From: Escherichia coli
Lineage (GTDB): Bacteria > Pseudomonadota > Gammaproteobacteria > Enterobacterales > Enterobacteriaceae
Length of the DNA stretch: 64,000 nt
NCBI RefSeq assembly: GCF_003018255.1
Contig: NZ_CP027440.1
Direction: 5' to 3' (one strand)
The notes beneath the pieces are model-generated. The model had not been told where the DNA came from, did not search any database, and saw only the letters and a list, made by a program, of their open reading frames with translations. Of the stretch, positions 3,093 through 37,192 are shown piece after piece (position 1 is the stretch's first letter; every line of letters starts with the position of its first letter). Both the position numbers and the translations under genes were made by a program.

Positions 3093-3470
3093 TCAGGTAC
3101 CGCGTTGACGCAAGCGGGTAACGATATCTTCTAACGATACTTTTCCCGCCGCCACATCAACCGTCAATTCTACAAACTCTGGGTTTGCAGCAAGTATGAT
3201 GCCGTTACGTTTAAGGAATAATAGCGTGATAAACAGTGCGGTGCGCTTATTACCATCATTAAAGATATGACCGCGCGAGATTGCCAATAGATGCATCGCC
3301 GCCAGCAGCCAAAGATCAGAAACGCCTTCATACTCATACTTATTCAGTACCCGGTACAAAAGCGCTTCTGCTCGCCCTGGATCGGACATTCCTGTTACAC
3401 CTGGTGTAACGCTAAGCAATTTATCGTGGAAATAAATTATCTCCTCCGCTGAGATAAACTGAATGGTCAT
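3093..3470 (-). CDS. doc: Doc (death-on-curing) Fic-family toxin
   Basis: 125 aa; GMSDPGRAEA and HIFNDGNKRTAL (Fic/Doc motif) closely resemble phage P1 Doc; overlaps the upstream antitoxin by 4 bp. Confidence 0.85.
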   Translation of the reverse strand: MTIQFISAEEIIYFHDKLLSVTPGVTGMSDPGRAEALLYRVLNKYEYEGVSDLWLLAAMHLLAISRGHIFNDGNKRTALFITLLFLKRNGIILAANPEFVELTVDVAAGKVSLEDIVTRLRQRGT

Positions 3471-3688
3471 TTATCCGCTAACTCCTTAATTTCGCTGCCA
3501 TGAATAGCCATGATGGCGTCAAATTCTGCGTCCAGTTTAGCCTTCTGGTAACGTTCAAACTCTTCTGCGCTGATAATCACAGCTGCCTTATGACCACGCC
3601 TCGTGATCGTTACCGGAGTACCTGTCGCCGCTGTTTCCAGAACTAATGCAAGGTTCTGCCGCGCTTCGCTGTAGTTCATGGTATGCAT
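3467..3688 (-). CDS. phd: Phd/YefM-family antitoxin
   Basis: MNYSEARQNL ... AAVIISAEEFERYQKAKLDAEF resembles P1 Phd; GGAGGA Shine-Dalgarno upstream; start chosen at MHTMNYSE (an alternative start is at 3680). Confidence 0.8.
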   Translation of the reverse strand: MHTMNYSEARQNLALVLETAATGTPVTITRRGHKAAVIISAEEFERYQKAKLDAEFDAIMAIHGSEIKELADK

Positions 3689-11836: not shown

Positions 11837-11924
11837 TCAAATCCTCTCAATCGATATCTTCTGGCGCTTCAGTGGTAGCAACAACTGTGCCAGAGCTTAA
11901 GAGCAACGAGGTTATCATTCACTG

Positions 11925-11958
11925 TTTTATCAGACCGTGATTTTATCCACAAGTTCAA
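11925..11958 (-). promoter_or_regulatory. rpoH P3 promoter (sigma-E type)
   Basis: Minus-strand GAACTT (-35, 11950-11955), 16-17 bp spacer, TCTGA (-10, 11928-11932): tgaacttgtggataaaatcacggtctgataaaa. Confidence 0.6.
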
Positions 11959-12080
11959 TGCAAGCTTGTGAATAAATTACGCACAAAATGTGACATAGAG
12001 ATGAAATACCGGGAAGAGACAACGGGGTCTCTTTCCCTGCTACGGAACCCATTGCAGGGAAAGAGTATAACACGCTTTTA

Positions 12081-13139
12081 TTATTCCGGCGTAAAGTGGC
12101 GTAAATGTTGTACCGTGGCAAGCCACGCTGCCACCCAGCCAATCATCGAGCATACCAGCAGCAACAGCAGGCATTCATCGAACGATAAGCCATTGATATC
12201 AAACTTTGTTCCGAAAACCTGTGCCACTTCCGCAACCGCCGATGACAAACGCAGTACCAGAATTTCTGACAAAATTAATGACAGCAATGCGCCAGAAAAT
12301 CCCAGCAATGCGCCTCCGTACAGGAACGGGCGCAGGATGAAACCATCCGTCGCACCAATCAGTTTCTGCACGTTAATGGAGTCACGGCGAGCAAAGATGC
12401 TCAGACGCACACTGTTGCCGATGACGAGGAACACTGCTGCCACCATCAACACGCCGATCATCGCGGAAACGCGCCCGACCAGCCCGGTTAACGCCGCCAG
12501 ACGGGCAAACCAGCTGTCATCCATCCGCACTTCGTCAATGCCGTTGATCTGGGTGATACGATCACGCAGCGTATTCAGTGATTCCGTCCCCTGAAAATCG
12601 AGTTTCGGGATCACCACCGCCACTGCCGGAAGCGGGTTTTCTTCCAGCATATCCAGCGCACCACCAAAACCAGACCAGTTACGGAACTCGCCCAGTGCGT
12701 CTTCACGAGAAAGATAATTCACTTTCTCTACGCCTTGCTCGGCCTGTAACTGTGCCACCACACCCGCAGCGGCGTCATCGTCCAGCGTTTTTTGCAGATA
12801 AACAGTGATTTGCGGTGACGGATAATATTGCGTCGCCGCCTGGTTAACGTTTTTGTACACCATATAACAGACGCTGGGCAGCGTCAGGGAGATGGCGATA
12901 ACCATCACCGTTAAAAACGTGGCGAACGGTTTGCTTTTCAGATCCTGCAATGCGCCGTGGAAGGCATAGCGCACCTGTTCGTTGAAAACGTTGGTTTTGC
13001 GATTTACCGGTTTTGGCGAGGATTTCGCGCGTTTCGGTGCGTTACGACCGCCGTCGCCTGAGCCGCCGACCGATTTACGGAAGCGATCCAGACGCCCGCC
13101 AAACTGCCGAATATGATTGATTGCATCGCGCTTATTCAT
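12081..13139 (-). CDS. ftsX: Cell division permease-like protein FtsX
   Basis: Start at [15 protein letters not shown] gives 352 aa; overlaps ftsE. Confidence 0.9.
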
Positions 13140-13800
13140 GGCCCACGCCTCCATGCAAGTGACCATCGCTCAGGGTGAGCATGCGATAGGAACGCCGCGA
13201 AATCAGGTTGATGTCGTGCGTTGCCATCAATACGGTTACCCCAACGCGGTTAAACTCTTCAAACAGACGTAAAATGCCTTCCGACAACGCGTCGTCCAGG
13301 TTACCAGTCGGTTCGTCCGCCAGCAGTACCGCGGGCTTATTCACCACCGCGCGGGCAATGCCAACACGCTGTTGTTCACCGCCGGAAAGCTGAATAGGAA
13401 AGTTCTTCGCTTTGTCCAGTAGCCCGACTTTATCCAGTGCCGCCGACACCCGGCGACGAATATCGTCACCGCTGGCACCGGCGATAATCAGCGGGATCGC
13501 CACGTTATCGTAGACAGTACGGTCCATCAGTAGATGGTGATCCTGGAAAATCATACCAATCTGGCGGCGCAGAAACGGAACTTCACGGTTTTTCAGACGC
13601 GTGATGTCATGGCCGCTAAACCAGATTTTCCCGGCGCTGGGCCGCTCAATCCCACAGATCAGCTTCAGGAGGGTACTTTTCCCTGCGCCGGAATGACCGG
13701 TCAGAAACGCCATCTCACCCGGCTGCATATGGAACGTAACGCCCTGCAGCGCCTGTCTCCCACCGAGATAAGCCTTGCTGACATGTTCAAAGCGAATCAT
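13132..13800 (-). CDS. ftsE: Cell division ATP-binding protein FtsE
   Basis: 222 aa, Walker [10 protein letters not shown]. Confidence 0.93.
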
Positions 13801-30038: not shown

Positions 30039-30240
30039 GCCTATTATTGGGTCCTTTGGTGAACGATCAACAAAGGGCCACTAGCACACCTGATTCCTCT
30101 CTAAATACCCTATCCGAACCTTCTCTTTTGTAACGTTCTAAATATATTCCTAAAAATCTTCAATTCATTGTGACCACAAGTTTTTCTTCGCTTTTTCGTA
30201 TGAAGATACTGTCATTAAAATAATAGAAAAGGATTTTACG

Positions 30241-33200
30241 ATGAGCGGAAAACCGGCGGCGCGTCAGGGCGACATGACGCAGTATGGCGGTAGCATTGTC
30301 CAGGGTTCTGCCGGGGTACGTATTGGTGCCCCCACCGGTGTGGCCTGTTCGGTGTGCCCCGGCGGGGTGACGTCCGGTCATCCGGTCAATCCGCTGCTCG
30401 GTGCGAAGGTCCTTCCCGGCGAAACCGACCTTGCCCTGCCCGGCCCGCTGCCGTTCATTCTCTCCCGCACCTACAGCAGTTACCGGACAAAAACGCCCGC
30501 GCCGGTGGGGAGCCTCGGCCCCGGCTGGAAAATGCCTGCGGATATCCGCTTACAGCTGCGCGATAACACACTGATACTCAGTGATAACGGCGGCAGAAGC
30601 CTGTATTTTGAGCACCTGTTTCCCGGTGAGGACGGTTACAGCCGCAGCGAGTCACTCTGGCTGGTGCGCGGCGGCGTGGCGAAACTGGATGAAGGTCACC
30701 GGCTGGCCGCACTCTGGCAGGCGCTGCCGGAAGAGCTTCGCCTGAGTCCGCATCGTTATCTGGCGACGAACAGTCCGCAGGGGCCGTGGTGGGTATTCGG
30801 CTGGTGTGAGCGGGTGCCGGAGGCGGATGAGGTGCTGCCTGCGCCGCTGCCGCCGTACCGGATACTGACCGGGCTGGTGGACCGCTTCGGGCGCACACAG
30901 ACGTTTCACCGTGAGGCTGGCGGCGAATTCAGCGGCGAAATCACCGGCGTGACCGACGGCGCAGGCCGTCACTTCCGGCTGGTACTGACCACGCAGGCGC
31001 TGCGGGCAGAAGAGGCCCGGCAGAAGGCCACTTCCGGCGGGACGGAACCGTCCGCTTTTCCTGATACCCAGCCGGACTACACGGAATATGGCCGGGACAA
31101 CGGTATCCGTCTGTCTGCCGTGTGGCTGACGCACGACCCGGAATACCCGGAGAATTTACCTGCCGCGCCGCTGGTACGCTATGGCTGGACGCCGCGCGGC
31201 GAACTGGCGGCGGTGTATGACCGCAGCAATACACAGGTGCGCAGCTTTACTTACGATGATAAATACCGGGGCCGGATGGTGGCGCACCGTCACACGGGCC
31301 GGCCGGAAATCCGTTACCGTTACGACAGTGACGGGCGGGTGACAGAACAGCTAAACCCGGCAGGCTTAAGCTACACGTATCAGTATGAGAAAGACCACAT
31401 CACCATCACCGACAGCCTGGACCGCCGTGAAGTGCTGCACACGCAGGGCGAAGGCGGGCTGAAGCGGGTGGTGAAAAAGGAACACGCGGACGGCAGCGTC
31501 ACGCAGAGTCAGTTTGACGCGGTGGGCAGGCTTAAGGCACAGACGGATGCCGCAGGCCGGACGACTGAGTACAGCCCGGATGTGGTGACCGGACTCATCA
31601 CGCGCATCACCACGCCGGATGGCAGGGCATCGGCGTTTTACTATAACCACCACAGCCAGTTAACGTCAGCCACCGGGACTGACGGGCTGGAGTTGCGCAG
31701 GGAATATGATGAATCCAGCCGTCTGATTCAGGAAACTGCCCCTGACGGCGATATCACCCGCTACCGTTATGATAATCCACACAGTGACTTACCCTGCGCA
31801 ACGGACGATGCCACCGGCAGCCGGAAAACCATGACATGGAGCCGTTACGGTCAGTTGCTGACCGTCACTGACTGTTCCGGTTATGTAACCCGTTATGACC
31901 ATGACCGTTTTGGTCAGATGACGGCGGCGCACCGCGAGGAAGGGCTGAGTCAGTATCGCGCATACGACAGCCGTGGACAGTTAATTGCGGTGAAAGACAT
32001 GCAGGGCCATGAAACGCGGTATGAATACAACGCCGCCGGTGACCTGACCGCCGTCATTGCCCCGGACGGCAGCAGAAACGGGACACAGTACGATACGTGG
32101 GGAAAGGCCATCCGTACCACGCAGGGTGGTCTGACGCGCAGTATGGAATACGATGCTGCCGGACGGGTCATCCGCCTGACCAGTGAAAACGGCAGCCACA
32201 CCACCTTCCGTTACGATGTACTCGACCGGCTGATACAGGAAACCGGTTTTGACGGCCGCACACAGCGTTATCATCACGACCTGACCGGTAAACTTATCCG
32301 CAGCGAGGATGAGGGGCTGGTCACCCACTGGCACTATGACGAAGCAGACCGCATCACGCACCGCACCGTGAAGGGTGAAACCGCAGAACAGTGGCGGTAC
32401 GACGAACGCGGCTGGCTGACAGGCATCAGCCATCTCAGCGAAGGGCACCGGGTGACGGTGCATTACAGGTATGATGAGAAAGGCCGCCTGACCGGTGAGC
32501 GCCAGACGGTGCATCACCCGCAGACGGAAGCACTGCTCTGGCAGCATGAGACCAGACATGCGTACAACGCGCAGGGGCTGGCGAACCGCTGTATACCGGA
32601 CAGCCTGCCCGCCGTGGAATGGCTGACTTACGGCAGCGGCTGGCTGGCAGGCATGAAACTCGGCGACACACCGCTGGTGGATTTCACCCGTGACCGCCTG
32701 CACCGGGAAACGCTGCGCAGCTTCGGCCGTTATGAACTCACCACCGCTTATACCTCTGCCGGGCAGTTACAGAGCCAGCACCTGAACAGCCTGCAGTATG
32801 ACCGCGATTACACCTGGAACGACAACGGCGAACTCATCCGCATCAGCAGCCCGCGACAGACCCGGAGTTACAGCTACAGCGACTCCGGCAGGCTGACCGG
32901 CGTCCACACCACCACCTCAAATCTGGATATCCGCATCCCGTATGCCACGGACCCGGCAGGTAACCGCCTGCCCGACCCGGAGCTGCACCCGGACAGCACC
33001 CTCAGCATGTGGCCGGATAACCGTATCGCCCGTGACGCGCACTATCTTTACCGGTATGACCGTCACGGCAGGCTGACAGAGAAAACCGACCTCATCCCGG
33101 AAGGGGTTATCCGCACGGATGATGAGCGGACTCACCGGTACCATTACGACAGCCGGCACCGGCTGGTGCACTACACGCGGACACAATATGCAGAGCCGCT

Positions 33201-34158
33201 GGTCGAAAGTCGCTATCTTTACGACCCGCTGGGCCGCAGGGTGGCAAAACGGGTATGGCGGCGTGAACGGGACCTGACGGGCTGGATGTCGCTGTCACGG
33301 AAACCGGAAGTGACCTGGTACGGCTGGGACGGCGACCGGCTGACCACGATACAGAACGACAGAACCCGCATCCAGACGGTTTATCAGCCGGGGAGCTTCA
33401 CGCCACTCATCAGGGTCGAAACCGCCACCGGAGAGCTGGCGAAAACGCAGCGCCGCAGCCTGGCGGATGCCCTTCAGCAGTCCGGCGGCGAAGACGGTGG
33501 CAGTGTGGTGTTCCCGCCGGTGCTGGTGCAGATGCTCGACCGGCTGGAAAGTGAAATCCTGGCTGACCGGGTGAGTGAGGAAAGCCGCCGCTGGCTGGCA
33601 TCGTGCGGCCTGACGGTGGAGCAGATACAAAACCAGATGGACCCGGTGTACACGCCGGCGCGAAAAATCCACCTGTACCACTGCGACCATCGCGGCCTGC
33701 CGCTGGCGCTTGTCAGCACGGAAGGGGCAACAGAATGGTGCGCAGAATACGATGAATGGGGCAACCTGCTGAATGAAGAGAACCCGCACCAGCTGCAGCA
33801 GCTCATCCGCCTGCCGGGTCAGCAGTATGATGAGGAGTCCGGCCTCTATTACAACCGCCACCGCTATTATGACCCGCTGCAGGGGCGGTATATCACTCAG
33901 GATCCGATTGGGCTTAAGGGGGGATGGAATTTTTATCAGTATCCGTTGAATCCGATCACTAATATAGATCCTTTAGGATTAGAAACACTAAAATGCATTA
34001 AGCCACTGCATTCAATGGGCGGAACTGGTGAAAGAAGCGGTCCAGATATATGGGGGAATCCGTTCTATCATCAATATCTTTGTGTCCCAGATGGTAAAGG
34101 GGACTATACTTGTGGTGGCCAAGACCAACGGGGAGAATCAAAAGGAGATGGTCTATAG
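30241..34158 (+). CDS. rhsB: Rhs family protein (RhsB-locus): N-terminal region, YD-repeat core ending at PxxxxDPxGL, C-terminal toxin domain truncated by an in-frame TAG
   Basis: 1305 codons; many YD repeats (RYRYD, RYDH, YEYN, TFRYD ...); core-end motif [11 protein letters not shown] near 33945-33977; GC-rich core and AT-rich C-terminus; located between nikR and yhhJ. Confidence 0.88.
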
Positions 34159-34434
34159 GGGCCAGGTAAAGCAAGTAATGATACAAAAGAAGCTGCTGGC
34201 CGTTGTGACCTCGTTGAAACCGATAATAGTTGTGTGGAGAACTGTTTAAAAGGGAAGTTTAAAGAGGTAAGGCCGCGTTATTCTGTATTGCCTGATATAT
34301 TCACACCTATAAATTTAGGGCTATTTAAAAACTGCCAAGACTGGTCTAATGATTCTTTAGAAACATGTAAGATGAAGTGCTCCGGAAATAACATTGGACG
34401 TTTTATTAGATTTGTATTTACCGGAGTGATGTAA
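34159..34434 (+). other. Same-frame continuation of the Rhs C-terminal domain after the TAG (Cys-rich, uncharacterised)
   Basis: No stop in the rhs frame from 34159 to TAA at 34432-34434; encodes GPGKASNDTKEAAGRCDLVETDNSCVENCLKGKF ...; no Shine-Dalgarno before the internal GTG. Confidence 0.55.
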
Positions 34435-34760
34435 TGAAATGTATTATTTTTTTATTCAGAGCTATATGGCTGGCTTTATCGCTTTTAATACTATTCTTTT
34501 CCATGCATAGACTTTCACTATTAGACTCCACTCGTGATGTGAGCGAGTTAATTAGTCTCATGTCTTATGGAATGATGGTAATATGTTTTCCAACAGGCAT
34601 AGTATTCTTTATTGCTCTAATATTTATAGGGACTGTTTCAGACATTATTGGCGTAAGGATTGATAGTAAGTATATTATGGCGATAATAATATGGCTTTAT
34701 TTTCTGTCAGGAGGGTATATTCAATGGTTTGTATTAAGTAAGCGCATTATAAACAAATAA
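34434..34760 (+). CDS. Putative Rhs immunity protein (small 3-TM membrane protein)
   Basis: 108 aa; ATG overlaps the upstream TAA (TAATG); GGAG Shine-Dalgarno 7 nt upstream; three hydrophobic helices; AT-rich. Confidence 0.6.
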   Translation: MKCIIFLFRAIWLALSLLILFFSMHRLSLLDSTRDVSELISLMSYGMMVICFPTGIVFFIALIFIGTVSDIIGVRIDSKYIMAIIIWLYFLSGGYIQWFVLSKRIINK

Positions 34761-34794
34761 ATTAAGTTAATTGCTCTTGTTATTATATGTAACC

Positions 34795-35275
34795 TGGGCA
34801 TTGATATCCCGTATGCCACAGACCCGGCAGGCAACCGCCTGCCCGACCCGGAGCTGCACCCGGACAGCACCCTCAGCATGTGGCCGGATAACCGTATCGC
34901 CCGTGACGCGCACTATCTTTACCGGTATGACCGTCACGGCAGGCTGACAGAGAAAACCGACCTCATCCCGGAAGGGGTTATCCGCACGGATGATGAGCGG
35001 ACTCACCGGTACCATTACGACAGCCGGCACCGGCTGGTGCACTACACGCGGACACAATATGCAGAGCCGCTGGTCGAAAGCCGCTATCTTTACGACCCGC
35101 TGGGCCGCAGGGTGGCAAAACGGGTGTGGCGGCGTGAACGGGACCTGACGGGCTGGATGTCGCTGTCACGGAAACCGGAAGTGACCTGGTACGGCTGGGA
35201 CGGCGACCGGCTGACCACGATACAGAACGACAGAACCCGCATCCAGACGGTTTATCAGCCGGGGAGCTTCACGCC
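34795..35275 (+). pseudogene. Displaced rhs core fragment (near-identical copy of 32930-33407)
   Basis: ORF 34878-35312 encodes [26 protein letters not shown] ... QPGSFTP, matching the internal rhsB segment; the copy ends abruptly at the H-repeat junction. Confidence 0.8.
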
Positions 35276-36570
35276 CAGGGAAAGATCATCAGAAGTACAC
35301 TTTTTGTACTAAGTAATTCGCATTTTATGTTTAAAAATCGAGATATTCCTCATTACCTGAAGCTGTTTTTTATTGCGTATACATGATCAAATACTCCTTA
35401 CATAATTAAGGAGAACAAAATGGAACTTAAAAAATTGATGGAACATATTTCTATTATCCCCGATTACAGACAAGCCTGGAAAGTGGAACATAAATTGTCG
35501 GATATTCTACTGTTGACTATTTGTGCCGTTATTTCTGGTGCAGAAGGCTGGGAAGATATAGAGGATTTTGGGGAAACACATCTCGATTTTTTAAAACAAT
35601 ATGGTGATTTTGAAAATGGTATTCCTGTTCACGATACCATCGCCAGAGTTGTATCCTGTATCAGTCCTTCAAAATTTCACGAGTGCTTTATTAACTGGAT
35701 GCGAGATTGCCATACTTCAGATGATAAAGACGTCATCGCAATTGATGGAAAAACACTCCGGCATTCTTATGGCAAGAGTCGCCGCAGGGGAGCGATTCAT
35801 GTCATTAGTGCGTTCTCAACAATGCACAGTCTGGTCATCGGACAGATCAGGACGGATGAGAAATCCAATGAGATTACAGCTATCCCTGAACTTCTTAACA
35901 TGCTGGATATTAAAGGAAAAATAATCACAACTGATGCAATGGGTTGCCAGAAAGATATTGCAGAGAAGATACAAAAACAGGGCGGTGATTATTTATTCGC
36001 TGTAAAAGGAAATCAGGGGCGGCTAAATAAAGCCTTTGAGGAAAAATTCCCACTGAAAGAATTAAATAATCCAGAGCATGACAGTTACGCAATTAGTGAA
36101 AAGAGTCACGGCAGAGAAGAAATCCGTCTTCACATTGTTTGCGATGTCCCTGATGAACTTATTGATTTCACGTTTGAATGGAAAGGTCTGAAGAAATTAT
36201 GCGTGGCAGTCTCCTTTCGGTCAATAATAGCAGAACAAAAGAAAGAGCCAGAAATGACGGTCAGATATTATATCAGTTCTGCTGATTTAACCGCAGAGAA
36301 GTTCGCCATAGCAATCCGAAACCACTGGCACGTGGAGAATAAGCTGCACTGGCGTCTGGACGTGGTAATGAATGAAGACGACTGCAAAATAAGAAGAGGA
36401 AATGCAGCAGAATTATTTTCAGGGATACGGCACATTGCTATTAATATTTTGACGAATGATAAGGTATTCAAGGCAGGGTTAAGACGTAAGATGCGAAAAG
36501 CAGCCATGGACAGAAACTATCTCGCGTCAGTCCTTGCGGGGAGCGGGCTTTCGTAATCTTGCCCTGATCA
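35268..36570 (+). mobile_element. H-repeat (H-rpt) element, ISAs1 family
   Basis: Contains the 378-aa transposase ORF; both flanks are repeated in the second copy downstream. Confidence 0.75.
35420..36556 (+). CDS. yhhI: H-repeat-associated ISAs1-family transposase (YhhI-like)
   Basis: 378 aa, [32 protein letters not shown] ..., DDE transposase-like. Confidence 0.85.
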
Positions 36571-36611: not shown

Positions 36612-37192
36612 GGCAGGGAAAGATCACGCAACGCTGCTTTTTTGTACTAAATAATTCGCACTAAATATTCAATAATTGAGATATTCCTTATTACCTAAAG
36701 CTGTTTTCCATTGCTTATACATGATCAAATACTCCTTACATAATTAAGGAGAACAAAATGGAACTTAAAAAATTGATGGAACATATTTCTATTATCCCCG
36801 ATTACAGACAAGCCTGGAAAGTGGAGCATAAATTGTCAGATATTCTACTGTTGACTATTTGTGCCGTTATTTCTGGTGCAGAAGGTTGGGAAGATATAGA
36901 GGATTTTGGGGAAACTCATCTCGATTTTTTGAAGCAATATGGTGATTTTGAAAATGGTATTCCTGTTCACGATACCATTGCCAGAGTTGTATCCTGTATC
37001 AGTCCTGAAAAATTTCACGAGTGCTTTATTAACTGGATGCGTGACTGCCATTCTTCAGATGATAAAGACGTCATTGTAATTGATGGAAAAACGCTCCGGC
37101 ACTCTTATGACAAGAGTCGCCGCAGGGGAGCGATTCATGTCATTTCTCGCGTCAGTCCTTGCGGGGAGCGGGCTTTCGTAATCTTGCCCTGA
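36612..37192 (+). mobile_element. Second, internally deleted H-repeat copy
   Basis: Same 5' flank and first ~130 codons as the first copy (36758-37141), then joined directly to the element's 3' terminus ([11 protein letters not shown] coding end). Confidence 0.75.

Follow-up and report, generated by a model that had tools for sequence, protein, structure and literature searches.

An orphan Rhs core protein at the rhsB site of Escherichia coli with an N-terminus resembling a single PAAR repeat

Described Rhs effectors related to the E. coli protein

The closest relative of solved structure is Tse5, also called RhsP1 (PA2684 of Pseudomonas aeruginosa; PDB 8cp6 and 9i9y), whose killing activity requires both VgrG1c and the H1-T6SS (PMC4067218). 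Its N-terminal fragment of 47 residues has been named a 'cryptic PAAR-like' domain and this PAAR-like domain, Tse5-NT, was described as necessary for secretion; in the cryo-EM structure residues 1–29 were not resolved and residues 30–47 are anchored by the plug (PMC10684867). The Rhs protein examined in the present study is encoded in the window, i.e. the whole 64-kb stretch of E. coli DNA that was analysed, and shares with Tse5 an N-terminal fragment of ~47 residues, the P48-V-N-P sequence, a DUF6531 plug, an Rhs cage and a C-terminal toxin. The flexibility of the first residues is a further likeness, seen as a low AF2 pLDDT here and by cryo-EM in Tse5 (PMC10684867). Comparison of the Tse5 shell with the Rhs protein by sequence gave an E value of 4.5e-126, and the best fold matches of the AF2 model were all T6SS Rhs effectors, with the Tse5 shell in first place (8cp6_B, E 2.6e-89, TM 0.76/0.84). 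Despite this closeness the two proteins differ. Neither the literal motif nor the CxxC has survived in Tse5 (MSGLPVSHVGE...), and both are kept in the E. coli protein, as PAARxGD and CSVC; the Tse5 gene adjoins vgrG1c, whereas the rhs gene of the window is an orphan; and the toxins are not the same, that of the window being truncated. In addition, dependence on a T6SS was demonstrated for Tse5, whereas for the window Rhs we only infer it.

Within E. coli, the Rhs proteins that are linked to T6SS2 or are neighbourless, as well as RhsA–E of K-12, belong to the same family (NCBIfam RHS_core) as the window Rhs. In the summary of Ma et al. 2017 given by PMC6730261, the neighbourless proteins (Rhs-Nb) are related to T6SS2-Rhs and killing by Rhs-CT3 requires clpV2; Z5014 (Rhs-CT5), which is an orphan of this clade in EHEC, is reported in PMC6730261 to mediate antagonism. 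The literature on E. coli 'PAAR-Rhs' proteins speaks of a 'PAAR domain' or 'PAAR motif' (PMC6730261, PMC7216683), RhsA–D being listed as 'PAAR domain' proteins in an in silico study of EHEC (PMC7216683), whereas in the protein described here this part amounts to one repeat of three. The window copy stands apart from the E. coli set in that an RhsC-type C-terminus is found at the rhsB site and is followed by a premature stop.

A further set of Rhs effectors possesses a full PAAR domain or a prePAAR-TMD-PAAR arrangement, as in RhsA of P. protegens (7q97), Tre23 of Photorhabdus (7pq5) and the metagenomic protein P0212, and has the cage, the plug, the PVNP motif of the cleavage region and the T6SS association in common with the window Rhs. 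Residues 1–47 of the window protein are colinear with the last PAAR repeat of these effectors and the linker behind it. However, these proteins carry ~60 to 300 extra N-terminal residues (two repeats, or a prePAAR and TM helices), which are absent from the E. coli protein, and some of them require Eag chaperones; none of this is found in the window. Two other candidates were considered and rejected, namely RhsB of Acidovorax citrulli as experimental support for the clade, since it depends on Eag and VgrG3, is cleaved at D280 and is not of the short form, and the DUF4150/PIPY 'PAAR-like' proteins as a match, which are another family.

Gene layout and chromosomal setting

The Rhs ORF occupies 30241..34158 on the + strand and encodes 1305 aa, with its ATG at 30241 and an early end at the TAG at 34156–34158. 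Its product is an RHS element core protein whose C-terminus is of the RhsC type, and the gene lies at the nikR/yhhJ (rhsB) site of the E. coli chromosome. Residues 1–1247 matched positions 1–1261 of the equivalog profile NCBIfam NF041261 RHS_core with 2609.3 bits (cut-off 2000), and Rhs_assc_core (TIGR03696) spans residues 1170–1247. The AF2 model of the ORF has a mean pLDDT of 85, with values below 50 for residues 1–41. The whole window is colinear with positions 3613743–3677748 of E. coli JNE112863, the nearest genome, with 99.80% identity.

On its 5' side the gene is separated from nikR by an AT-rich non-coding leader (30039..30240), with a GC content of 0.36 as compared with 0.63 in the start of the gene. 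The sequence AAAAGGA sits 7 nt 5' of the Rhs ATG, and a promoter scan of the leader found no sigma-70-like promoter on the + strand. As the gene 5' of rhs is nikR, this rhs is not directly downstream of a vgrG. An in-frame stop is present at 30151–30153, 29 codons 5' of the ATG, and between the two there is neither a start codon nor a PAAR-like peptide; because of this stop and the lack of a start codon in the leader, the ORF cannot be extended to accommodate two more PAAR repeats.

At the other end, a PxxxxDPxGL motif (33952..33981, + strand), located by motif search, marks the end of the conserved core, next to which lies the polymorphic toxin. This C-terminal toxin region is of the K-12 RhsC type (33982..34434, + strand) and, by comparison with the intact gene of JNE112863, is interrupted by the stop at 34156–34158: the JNE112863 counterpart encodes 1397 aa, and the window has TAG in place of TGG at codon 1306, 92 codons early. 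It is followed by a ybfB-like ORF of 108 aa (34434..34760, + strand), which is annotated ybfB in the syntenic genome and is presumed to be the cognate immunity gene. Neither this ORF nor the intact Rhs C-terminus matched a Pfam family. Of the Rhs toxin–immunity module, the PxxxxDPxGL motif and the ybfB-like ORF are present and the toxin is not intact; with its toxin cut short by a nonsense codon, this Rhs copy may have lost the ability to deliver a working toxin. Further to the right are an orphan rhs core fragment (34791..35276, + strand), in which 34806–35275 is a 99.1% copy of 32935–33404, the ISEc1 transposase yhhI (ISAs1-family, H-rpt; 35420..36556, + strand), which usually forms the right end of Rhs elements, and a remnant copy of the ISEc1 transposase at 36758–37192.

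Relationship of the N-terminus to the PAAR domain

Positions 30241–30420 of the window encode Rhs residues 1–60, which fall into three segments. The first, residues 1–29 (30241..30327, + strand), corresponds in profile, PDB and relative alignments to a single PAAR repeat, the third and last of a PAAR domain, and a motif search placed a literal P-A-A-R at residues 5–8 (30253–30264). A conserved linker follows at residues 30–47 (30328..30381, + strand), which holds both cysteines in a CxxC (30346–30357) and in which A35, C36, S37 and C39 are almost invariant among 32 family members; by alignment this segment is common to one-repeat and three-repeat relatives. By alignment, the linker corresponds to the part of Tse5-NT that is held within the shell. 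The third segment opens DUF6531, the N-terminal plug of the Rhs cage (30382..30609, + strand; Pfam PF20148, residues 46–123, 66.9 bits), a region homologous to Tse5 residues 48–170 and modelled with a pLDDT of ~80–90. Both DUF6531 and RHS_core exceed their own cut-offs. Opposite P48 of the query stands the first residue of Tse5 chain B (PVNPMLGSKL), a chain that starts from the K47/P48 cleavage site, and the family shows no variation at P48, V49 or P51. By analogy with Tse5, cleavage of the Rhs protein probably takes place between H47 and P48, at a predicted N-terminal autocleavage site encoded at 30379..30384 (+ strand).

Matches to curated PAAR models were confined to the first segment and to the end of each profile. 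Pfam PAAR_motif (PF05488) aligned residues 2–20 with profile positions 51–69 of 70 (17.0–18.3 bits, cut-off 27), and NCBIfam NF033420 (T6SS_PAAR_dom) aligned residues 2–29 with positions 68–94 of 94 (16.3 bits, cut-off 124), with single-sequence E values of 0.003–0.007 and 0.008 respectively. None of the curated PAAR models reached its threshold for the N-terminal peptide, and the whole Rhs protein as query gave no PAAR hit in Pfam or NCBIfam. The single sequence compared with PAAR proteins of the PDB gave E values of 0.002–0.02, aligned at their last repeat. With a family profile made from 32 family N-termini, the last PAAR repeat was matched in SalCis10 (9rce_c, E 5.2e-12), VCA0105 (4jiv_D, E 5e-9) and c1882 (4jiw_D, E 7.2e-7), and profile positions 1–45 matched Tse5-NT (8cp6_A, E 9.1e-7). 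The resemblance to PAAR, as measured by these comparisons, exceeds chance, and there is solid statistical support for homology to the last PAAR repeat. A homologue search with residues 1–130 returned only near-identical enterobacterial fragments.

A preliminary description of this DNA had called the first ~60 residues PAAR-like, with stress on a Gly/Cys-containing stretch. This holds for residues 2–29 and does not extend to the linker (30–47) or the plug (48–60). The Gly/Cys stretch is not the PAAR-like part; the peptide quoted, residues 10–42, starts just after the literal P-A-A-R. In the profile search that was proposed as a check, the curated models stayed below threshold and the family profile matched PAAR structures with E values from 5.2e-12 to 7.2e-7.

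A canonical PAAR protein, such as VCA0105 (4jiv), c1882 (4jiw) or SalCis10 (9rce), consists of three repeats in one chain of 93–99 aa that forms a cone, whereas the window Rhs has one. Its pattern, G-K-PAAR-x-GD-x(4)-GG-x-I-x-x-GS-x-x-V-x-IG, is matched by the third repeat of these proteins nearly residue-for-residue; ahead of GG, SalCis10 has a His in this repeat where the E. coli protein has Tyr15, at a position that varies in the family. One PAAR repeat alone cannot form the canonical cone. When aligned by MAFFT with full-PAAR relatives (P0208, P0212 and others), residues 1–47 fall on repeat 3 and the linker, and these relatives have ~60 extra residues and score 126–142 bits with Pfam PAAR; the gene for P0212 is directly behind vgrG inside a T6SS cluster. 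These alignments indicate that the Rhs N-terminus derives from PAAR and represents one third of a PAAR domain, not the full domain.

Coupling to a T6SS and alternative readings

Starting at the same point in 75 of 80 related loci, the one-repeat N-terminus is kept across two orders of bacteria. A vgrG gene is directly upstream in 36 of the 71 informative loci of other species (Enterobacterales and Comamonadaceae); in each of these 36 the two genes are at most 177 nt apart and have no other gene between them. About half of the other-species loci are orphans too. Of 5426 complete E. coli genomes, 2699 carried a vgrG–rhs junction with the same N-terminal module. An apparent covariation of Rhs residue 4 (K or F/M) with the tip motif of VgrG (INWNCG or INLNCG) was seen in two genera only.

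The nearest genome, JNE112863, has a full T6SS cluster at aspV with hcp-vgrG-rhs, in which there is no other PAAR-type ORF; its vasL gene is frameshifted. The Rhs encoded behind the vgrG of this cluster shares its first 90 residues with the orphan Rhs of the window (97% identical), whereas identity in the shell is 66–81%. Between these paralogues omega was 0.04 with a dS of 0.61 over codons 1–90, as compared with an omega of 0.29 over codons 91–250. These data show that the N-terminal module is under strong purifying selection. No T6SS or other secretion gene is annotated in the JNE112863 region syntenic with the 64-kb window, in agreement with the preliminary description, which had noted the absence of T6SS genes and had placed delivery in the hands of loci elsewhere; the aspV cluster and its vgrG, both outside the window, are what its suggested survey of the genome brought to light in JNE112863. 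The T6SS coupling that it had suggested is likewise supported by the PAAR homology, by the vgrG linkage in other species and in E. coli, and by the precedent of Tse5 (PMC4067218, PMC10684867). Judged from sequence, this coupling of the window Rhs appears real, but it is already known.

In our view the protein is probably one of the orphan ('neighbourless') proteins of the classical E. coli Rhs core family, with an N-terminus made up of one PAAR repeat, a linker and a plug, and docks via a VgrG encoded elsewhere. The flexible N-terminal peptide would serve to dock the Rhs cage, once loaded, at the tip of the VgrG trimer, the likely VgrG in the nearest genome being the vgrG product of the aspV T6SS cluster, and the fragment cut at H47/P48 would stay attached to the cage. 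Since the aspV-cluster Rhs and the orphan have the same first 90 residues, the orphan may compete with the cluster-encoded Rhs, or replace it, as cargo of the same spike. Several observations weigh against this reading: no curated PAAR model is at threshold (18 bits against 27, and 16 against 124), one repeat is not enough for the canonical cone, the copy is not beside vgrG, the 64 kb hold no T6SS gene, vasL of the nearest genome is frameshifted, K-12 has kept the module despite the loss of its aspV cluster, orphans make up about half of the other-species loci, and the toxin is truncated here.

A second reading, unlikely in our judgement, takes the module to be a relic: the host would not export this orphan Rhs at all, and only shared ancestry or conversion between paralogous rhs genes would have preserved the N-terminus. 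The nonsense codon that cuts the toxin, the frameshifted vasL of JNE112863 and the lack of a sigma-70-like promoter on the + strand of the leader are all consistent with it, as is K-12, which retains five module copies though its aspV T6SS cluster is deleted, so that the module persists there without the machine. However, a dS of 0.6 together with an omega of 0.04 on codons 1–90 points to long-term selection on the protein and not to recent conversion, and the one-repeat start is conserved across two orders. The clade member Z5014 (Rhs-CT5) of EHEC, likewise an orphan, is moreover reported to act in antagonism (PMC6730261).

We think it quite improbable that a PAAR-like cone of true three-fold symmetry is built on the VgrG trimer from single repeats given by three Rhs molecules, each spike then bearing three toxin cages. 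The PAAR cone is indeed pseudo-three-fold, three concatenated copies of residues 1–29 were recognized as a full PAAR (61 bits, Pfam PAAR profile 1–69 of 70), no further PAAR-type ORF occurs in the T6SS cluster of E. coli, and the peptide is disordered in the AF2 monomer. Natural relatives also exist with a PAAR made of three near-identical repeats of this kind: those of Mixta L059 are 65–73% identical to each other, as compared with 43–50% in ordinary PAARs, and those of P0174, a weaker case, are 48–59% identical among themselves. Against such a cone, Tse5 residues 1–29 were not resolved by cryo-EM (PMC10684867) and, by our own reasoning, three cages of ~150 kDa would be hard to fit through the baseplate and membrane complex. 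A single-chain AF2 chimera of Rhs 1–56 with three 122-aa VgrG C-termini (GS linkers, 21 paired rows), representing docking at the VgrG tip, had a mean pLDDT of 27.8 and a pTM of 0.15 and is not counted here for or against any reading.

That the N-terminus is a complete but divergent PAAR domain, capping VgrG canonically as a monomeric cone, is highly improbable, and we rejected this as contradicted by the sequence, even though the literal PAAR motif, the weak matches to PAAR profiles and the naming of RhsA–D as 'PAAR domain' proteins in the EHEC study (PMC7216683) are in its favour. Three repeats in one chain forming a cone would take up about 70–95 aa, whereas the only part that aligns is residues 2–29, which in every profile or structure fall on the last third, with scores under the curated cut-offs, before the linker and then the DUF6531 plug come next. 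Nor is there room upstream, with a stop 29 codons away in an AT-rich leader and no start between, and 75 of the 80 related loci begin at the same point, while the relatives with a genuine PAAR are ~60 residues longer.

Lastly, a prePAAR-type effector, in which an N-terminal AARxxDxxxH completes a split PAAR located downstream, with TM helices and an Eag (DUF1795) chaperone, has next to no chance of being correct and was rejected as contradicted by the domain order: a 10-residue N-terminal stretch of the window peptide does resemble the prePAAR motif, AARxxDxxxH, but no PAAR domain lies downstream, where the next domain is DUF6531, the model of residues 1–150 contains no helix or hydrophobic segment, Pfam prePAAR_I gave no hit for the window peptide at E values up to 10, the upstream gene is nikR and not an Eag chaperone, and in all 36 vgrG-linked loci rhs follows vgrG without a gene in between.

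The Rhs at this E. coli site, its PAAR-related N-terminus and its role as T6SS cargo are already known, and the Tse5 structure shows a protein built in the same way; the value of the present observations as a discovery is small. It is improbable that the one-repeat N-terminus represents, instead of a degenerate PAAR, a distinct and widespread design of the spike tip, either as a three-Rhs cone on the VgrG trimer or as one blade holding a 150-kDa cage. If the cone were true, up to three Rhs toxins, possibly different ones, would be delivered per firing; if the single blade were true, it would be enough to hold a cage of 150 kDa on a VgrG that carries no other cap, in T6SS clusters lacking a PAAR gene. 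A change between the one-repeat form and a re-triplicated three-repeat form (Mixta L059, and less clearly P0174) would then be a switch in stoichiometry. What is gained is a sharper description, in which the 'PAAR-like domain' of a large Rhs clade consists of precisely one PAAR repeat and a CxxC linker. As this module is common to vgrG-linked and orphan copies in one genome, scattered orphan rhs genes could feed one spike.

The rhs locus and its reading frame

The whole 64 kb is colinear with Escherichia coli JNE112863 (NZ_AP045072.1, 3613743-3677748) at 99.80% identity and without a large indel, the gene order running from ugpEAB, a doc/phd pair, livFGMHK, panM, livJ, rpoH and ftsXEY through to nikABCDE-nikR and rhs, followed by a ybfB-like ORF, an rhs fragment, ISEc1, yhhJ and rbbA and then on to slp, dctR and chuS. 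No secretion genes are found among the annotated genes of the window, in agreement with the preliminary description, which had reported no type VI secretion system (T6SS) genes here.

The rhs ORF (30241-34158, plus strand) encodes 1305 amino acids and cannot be extended in the 5' direction, because the reading frame is closed by a stop 29 codons before the start, with no start codon between, and the leader has a GC content of 36%, compared with 63% for the gene. At the 3' end, TAG at 34156-34158 stands where JNE112863 has TGG (Trp1306), and Rhs ends 92 codons early, inside an RhsC-type toxin. Either the toxin is in decay or the stop is a sequencing error; because the toxin is truncated, the rhs copy itself may be decaying. 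The ybfB-like immunity ORF (34434-34760, plus strand) is intact. It is followed by an orphan copy (34806-35275) of the internal rhs core segment 32935-33404 (470 bp, 99.1% identical), and then by a copy of ISEc1 (H-rpt) and a remnant sharing 93% identity (35276-35806 versus 36614-37144), which together with rhs form the classic composite Rhs-element layout.

Elsewhere in the window, a toxin of the doc family (125 aa) lies with a phd/yefM antitoxin between ugpB and livF (3093-3688, minus strand; annotation of the colinear genome). Approximately 6 kb before the window start, JNE112863 carries a 392-aa Hcp (tssD/yhhZ; 3606859-3608528, corresponding to 11860-13529 of locus L002) with a C-terminal extension showing a weak HNH match and with yrhA downstream of it, an orphan Hcp-toxin module close to the rhs locus.

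Homology of the Rhs N-terminus to a single PAAR repeat

The whole Rhs protein matched RHS_repeat, DUF6531 (residues 46-123) and RHS in Pfam and scored 2609 bits (cut-off 2000) with the NCBIfam equivalog 'RHS element core protein'; neither database gave a PAAR match. When the N-terminal 47-100 residues were searched alone, sub-threshold PAAR matches appeared, to Pfam PAAR_motif (17-18 bits, cut-off 27; Rhs residues 2-20 on profile positions 51-69 of 70) and NCBIfam T6SS_PAAR_dom (16 bits, cut-off 124; residues 2-29 on positions 68-94 of 94). The peptide that had been described as PAAR-like corresponds to residues 10-42, and is directly preceded by a literal Pro-Ala-Ala-Arg at residues 5-8 (30253-30264, plus strand). 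As a single sequence, residues 2-29 aligned with the final repeat in each of SalCis10, VCA0105 (4jiv) and c1882 (4jiw), at E values of 0.002-0.4. A family profile from an alignment of 32 N-termini, searched against PDB chains, matched through its positions 3-29 SalCis10 (9rce_c, E 5.2e-12, chain residues 72-98 of 99), VCA0105 (4jiv_D, E 5e-9) and c1882 (4jiw_D, E 7e-7; both residues 68-93 of 93), through positions 1-45 the Tse5 N-terminal fragment (8cp6_A, E 9e-7, residues 27-71 of 73), through 2-33 Tre23 (7pq5_L, E 1.3e-4, residues 163-194) and through 2-32 Tas1 (6ox6_A, E 4.8e-4, residues 113-143). In the PAAR-containing matches of this profile the last PAAR repeat is the top-scoring stretch, so the homology is real but limited to one repeat, approximately one third of a PAAR domain. 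Three joined copies of residues 1-29 scored 61 bits over Pfam PAAR positions 1-69, which indicates that the deficit is one of copy number rather than repeat quality. The proposed PAAR resemblance is therefore genuine homology, although it covers a third of the domain rather than the whole and stays below the curated cut-offs.

An exhaustive search with Rhs residues 1-200 returned 594 representative proteins, in most of which, down to 44% identity, the match begins at their own residue 1. A few relatives (P0208, P0212, P0225, P0246, P0252 and P0174) have approximately 60 extra N-terminal residues and pass Pfam PAAR comfortably, at 66-142 bits; the P0212 gene lies directly behind vgrG within a T6SS cluster. 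On MAFFT alignment, the MSG-KPAAR start of the window protein falls on the '...ING-KPAAR...' that opens the third repeat of these longer relatives, with colinearity extending through the conserved G-x-ACSxCPGG linker into the ten residues beyond. In a cross-species scan of one genome per species, yielding 80 loci distributed over Enterobacterales (among them Citrobacter, Rahnella, Buttiauxella, Trabulsiella and Serratia) and Comamonadaceae, 75 loci begin M-x-G-x-PAAR with no additional PAAR repeat encoded in frame upstream, where a stop in the same frame is usually at most a few dozen codons away; three of the 80 are truncated or frameshifted. The one-repeat start is the rule among these relatives. 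The Mixta tenebrionis locus L059 (approximately 2210-2520) encodes an N-terminal PAAR of three near-identical short-form repeats (65-73% pairwise, compared with 43-50% in ordinary PAARs), P0174 looks similar but with repeat identities of just 48-59%, and locus L085 has two repeats. Judged from these repeat structures, re-triplication and interconversion between the one- and three-repeat forms are suggested.

Association with VgrG and constraint on the module

Delivery had been expected to depend on loci outside the window, and the nearest genome, JNE112863, does have a full aspV T6SS cluster, comprising hcp, vasL (frameshifted; locus L004, 24175-25585), tssM, tssA, vasI, tssH, tssL, tssK, tssJ, tagH, tssG, tssF, tssE, tssC, tssB, hcp and vgrG, with an 'RHS element core protein' gene 66 nt after vgrG. 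The first 47 residues of this Rhs differ from those of the window protein at three positions (S18P, V43M and H47N). Apart from its N-terminus, no ORF of the cluster has a PAAR motif, and the hypothetical proteins encoded there gave no PAAR, DUF4150 or DUF4280 matches.

Of 5426 complete E. coli genomes, 2699 have the vgrG-rhs junction, 2278 have tssBC of the aspV cluster and 3902 have the N-terminal module (median seven copies). Across species, 36 of the 71 informative loci (of 80) have vgrG immediately upstream in the same orientation, with true gaps of at most 177 nt and no intervening gene, a lower bound because the search used two VgrG seeds only; the remaining 35 are orphans among housekeeping genes, like P0157, P0159 and P0226. 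K-12 retains five module copies although at aspV it has lost everything lying between remnants of vasL and ISAs1. Between aspV and yafV, K-12 ER3413 is left with yafT, ykfM (where JNE112863 has the 159-aa hcp), a partial hypothetical ORF (where JNE112863 has vasL) and the ISAs1 remnant, a scar left by deletion of a T6SS-rhs region.

The VgrG tip INWNCG pairs with Rhs 'G-K-PAAR', and INLNCG (Rahnella and Buttiauxella) with 'G-F/M-PAAR' (loci L016-L093), which may represent co-variation, seen in two genera only. In Comamonadaceae (L065, L070, L073, L076, L080, L081 and L083), the VgrG upstream of short-form Rhs has a Gly/Ala-rich C-terminal tail, running up to approximately 190 residues past the seed-VgrG match and ending 0-124 nt before the rhs start.

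Between the window Rhs and its vgrG-linked paralogue in JNE112863, codons 1-90 are 97% identical at the amino acid level with dS 0.61, dN 0.026 and ω 0.04, whereas codons 91-250 give dS 0.68, dN 0.196 and ω 0.29 and the whole shell is 66-81% identical. Such low ω at high dS, compared with the shell, argues for long-term selection on the N-terminal protein sequence rather than recent gene conversion. In ten enterobacterial genomes with both orphan and vgrG-linked copies, the repeat is on average 93% identical and the shell 81% (cross-genus, 78% and 60%), a within-genome likeness that is suggestive but confounded by ancestry.

Tse5 and a proposed mode of delivery

The best sequence and fold match of the window Rhs is Tse5/RhsP1 of Pseudomonas aeruginosa (E 4.5e-126; Foldseek E 2.6e-89, TM 0.76/0.84). 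Tse5 is cleaved at K47|P48 into a 5-kDa N-terminal fragment, shell and toxin, and by cryo-EM its residues 1-29 are unresolved and the DUF6531 plug holds residues 30-47 in place within the shell (PMC10684867, in which the PAAR-like domain of Tse5-NT is described as required for secretion); killing by Tse5 requires VgrG1c and the H1-T6SS (PMC4067218). P48 is at the same position in both proteins. An AF2 model of Rhs residues 1-1200 had a mean pLDDT of 85.4, with residues 1-41 below 50 and without secondary structure.

Homology to one PAAR repeat and a Tse5-type architecture occur together with strong constraint, frequent vgrG adjacency and, in JNE112863, a T6SS cluster that carries the module. 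We propose that the flexible 29-residue repeat would dock the Rhs cage on the tip of a VgrG whose gene lies elsewhere (a model of this docking, at pLDDT 27.8, gave no usable pose), that the CxxC linker would be held by the DUF6531 plug with the chain cut at a predicted H47|P48 site, and that orphan Rhs copies may use the same spike as the Rhs encoded in the cluster.

RhsA-D of EHEC are classed in an in silico study as orphan 'PAAR domain' proteins whose VgrG is not known (PMC7216683). Ma et al. (2017), as summarized in PMC6730261, described more than 400 E. coli 'PAAR-Rhs' proteins, with neighbourless Rhs as relatives of the T6SS2-cluster Rhs, and found Rhs-CT3 killing abolished in a clpV2 mutant; the same summary gives Rhs-CT5 (Z5014, RhsA in Table 1 of PMC7216683) as active in antagonism. 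The data support coupling to T6SS while correcting the supposed PAAR domain to a third of one; the window Rhs is an ordinary representative of a family that is already well described.
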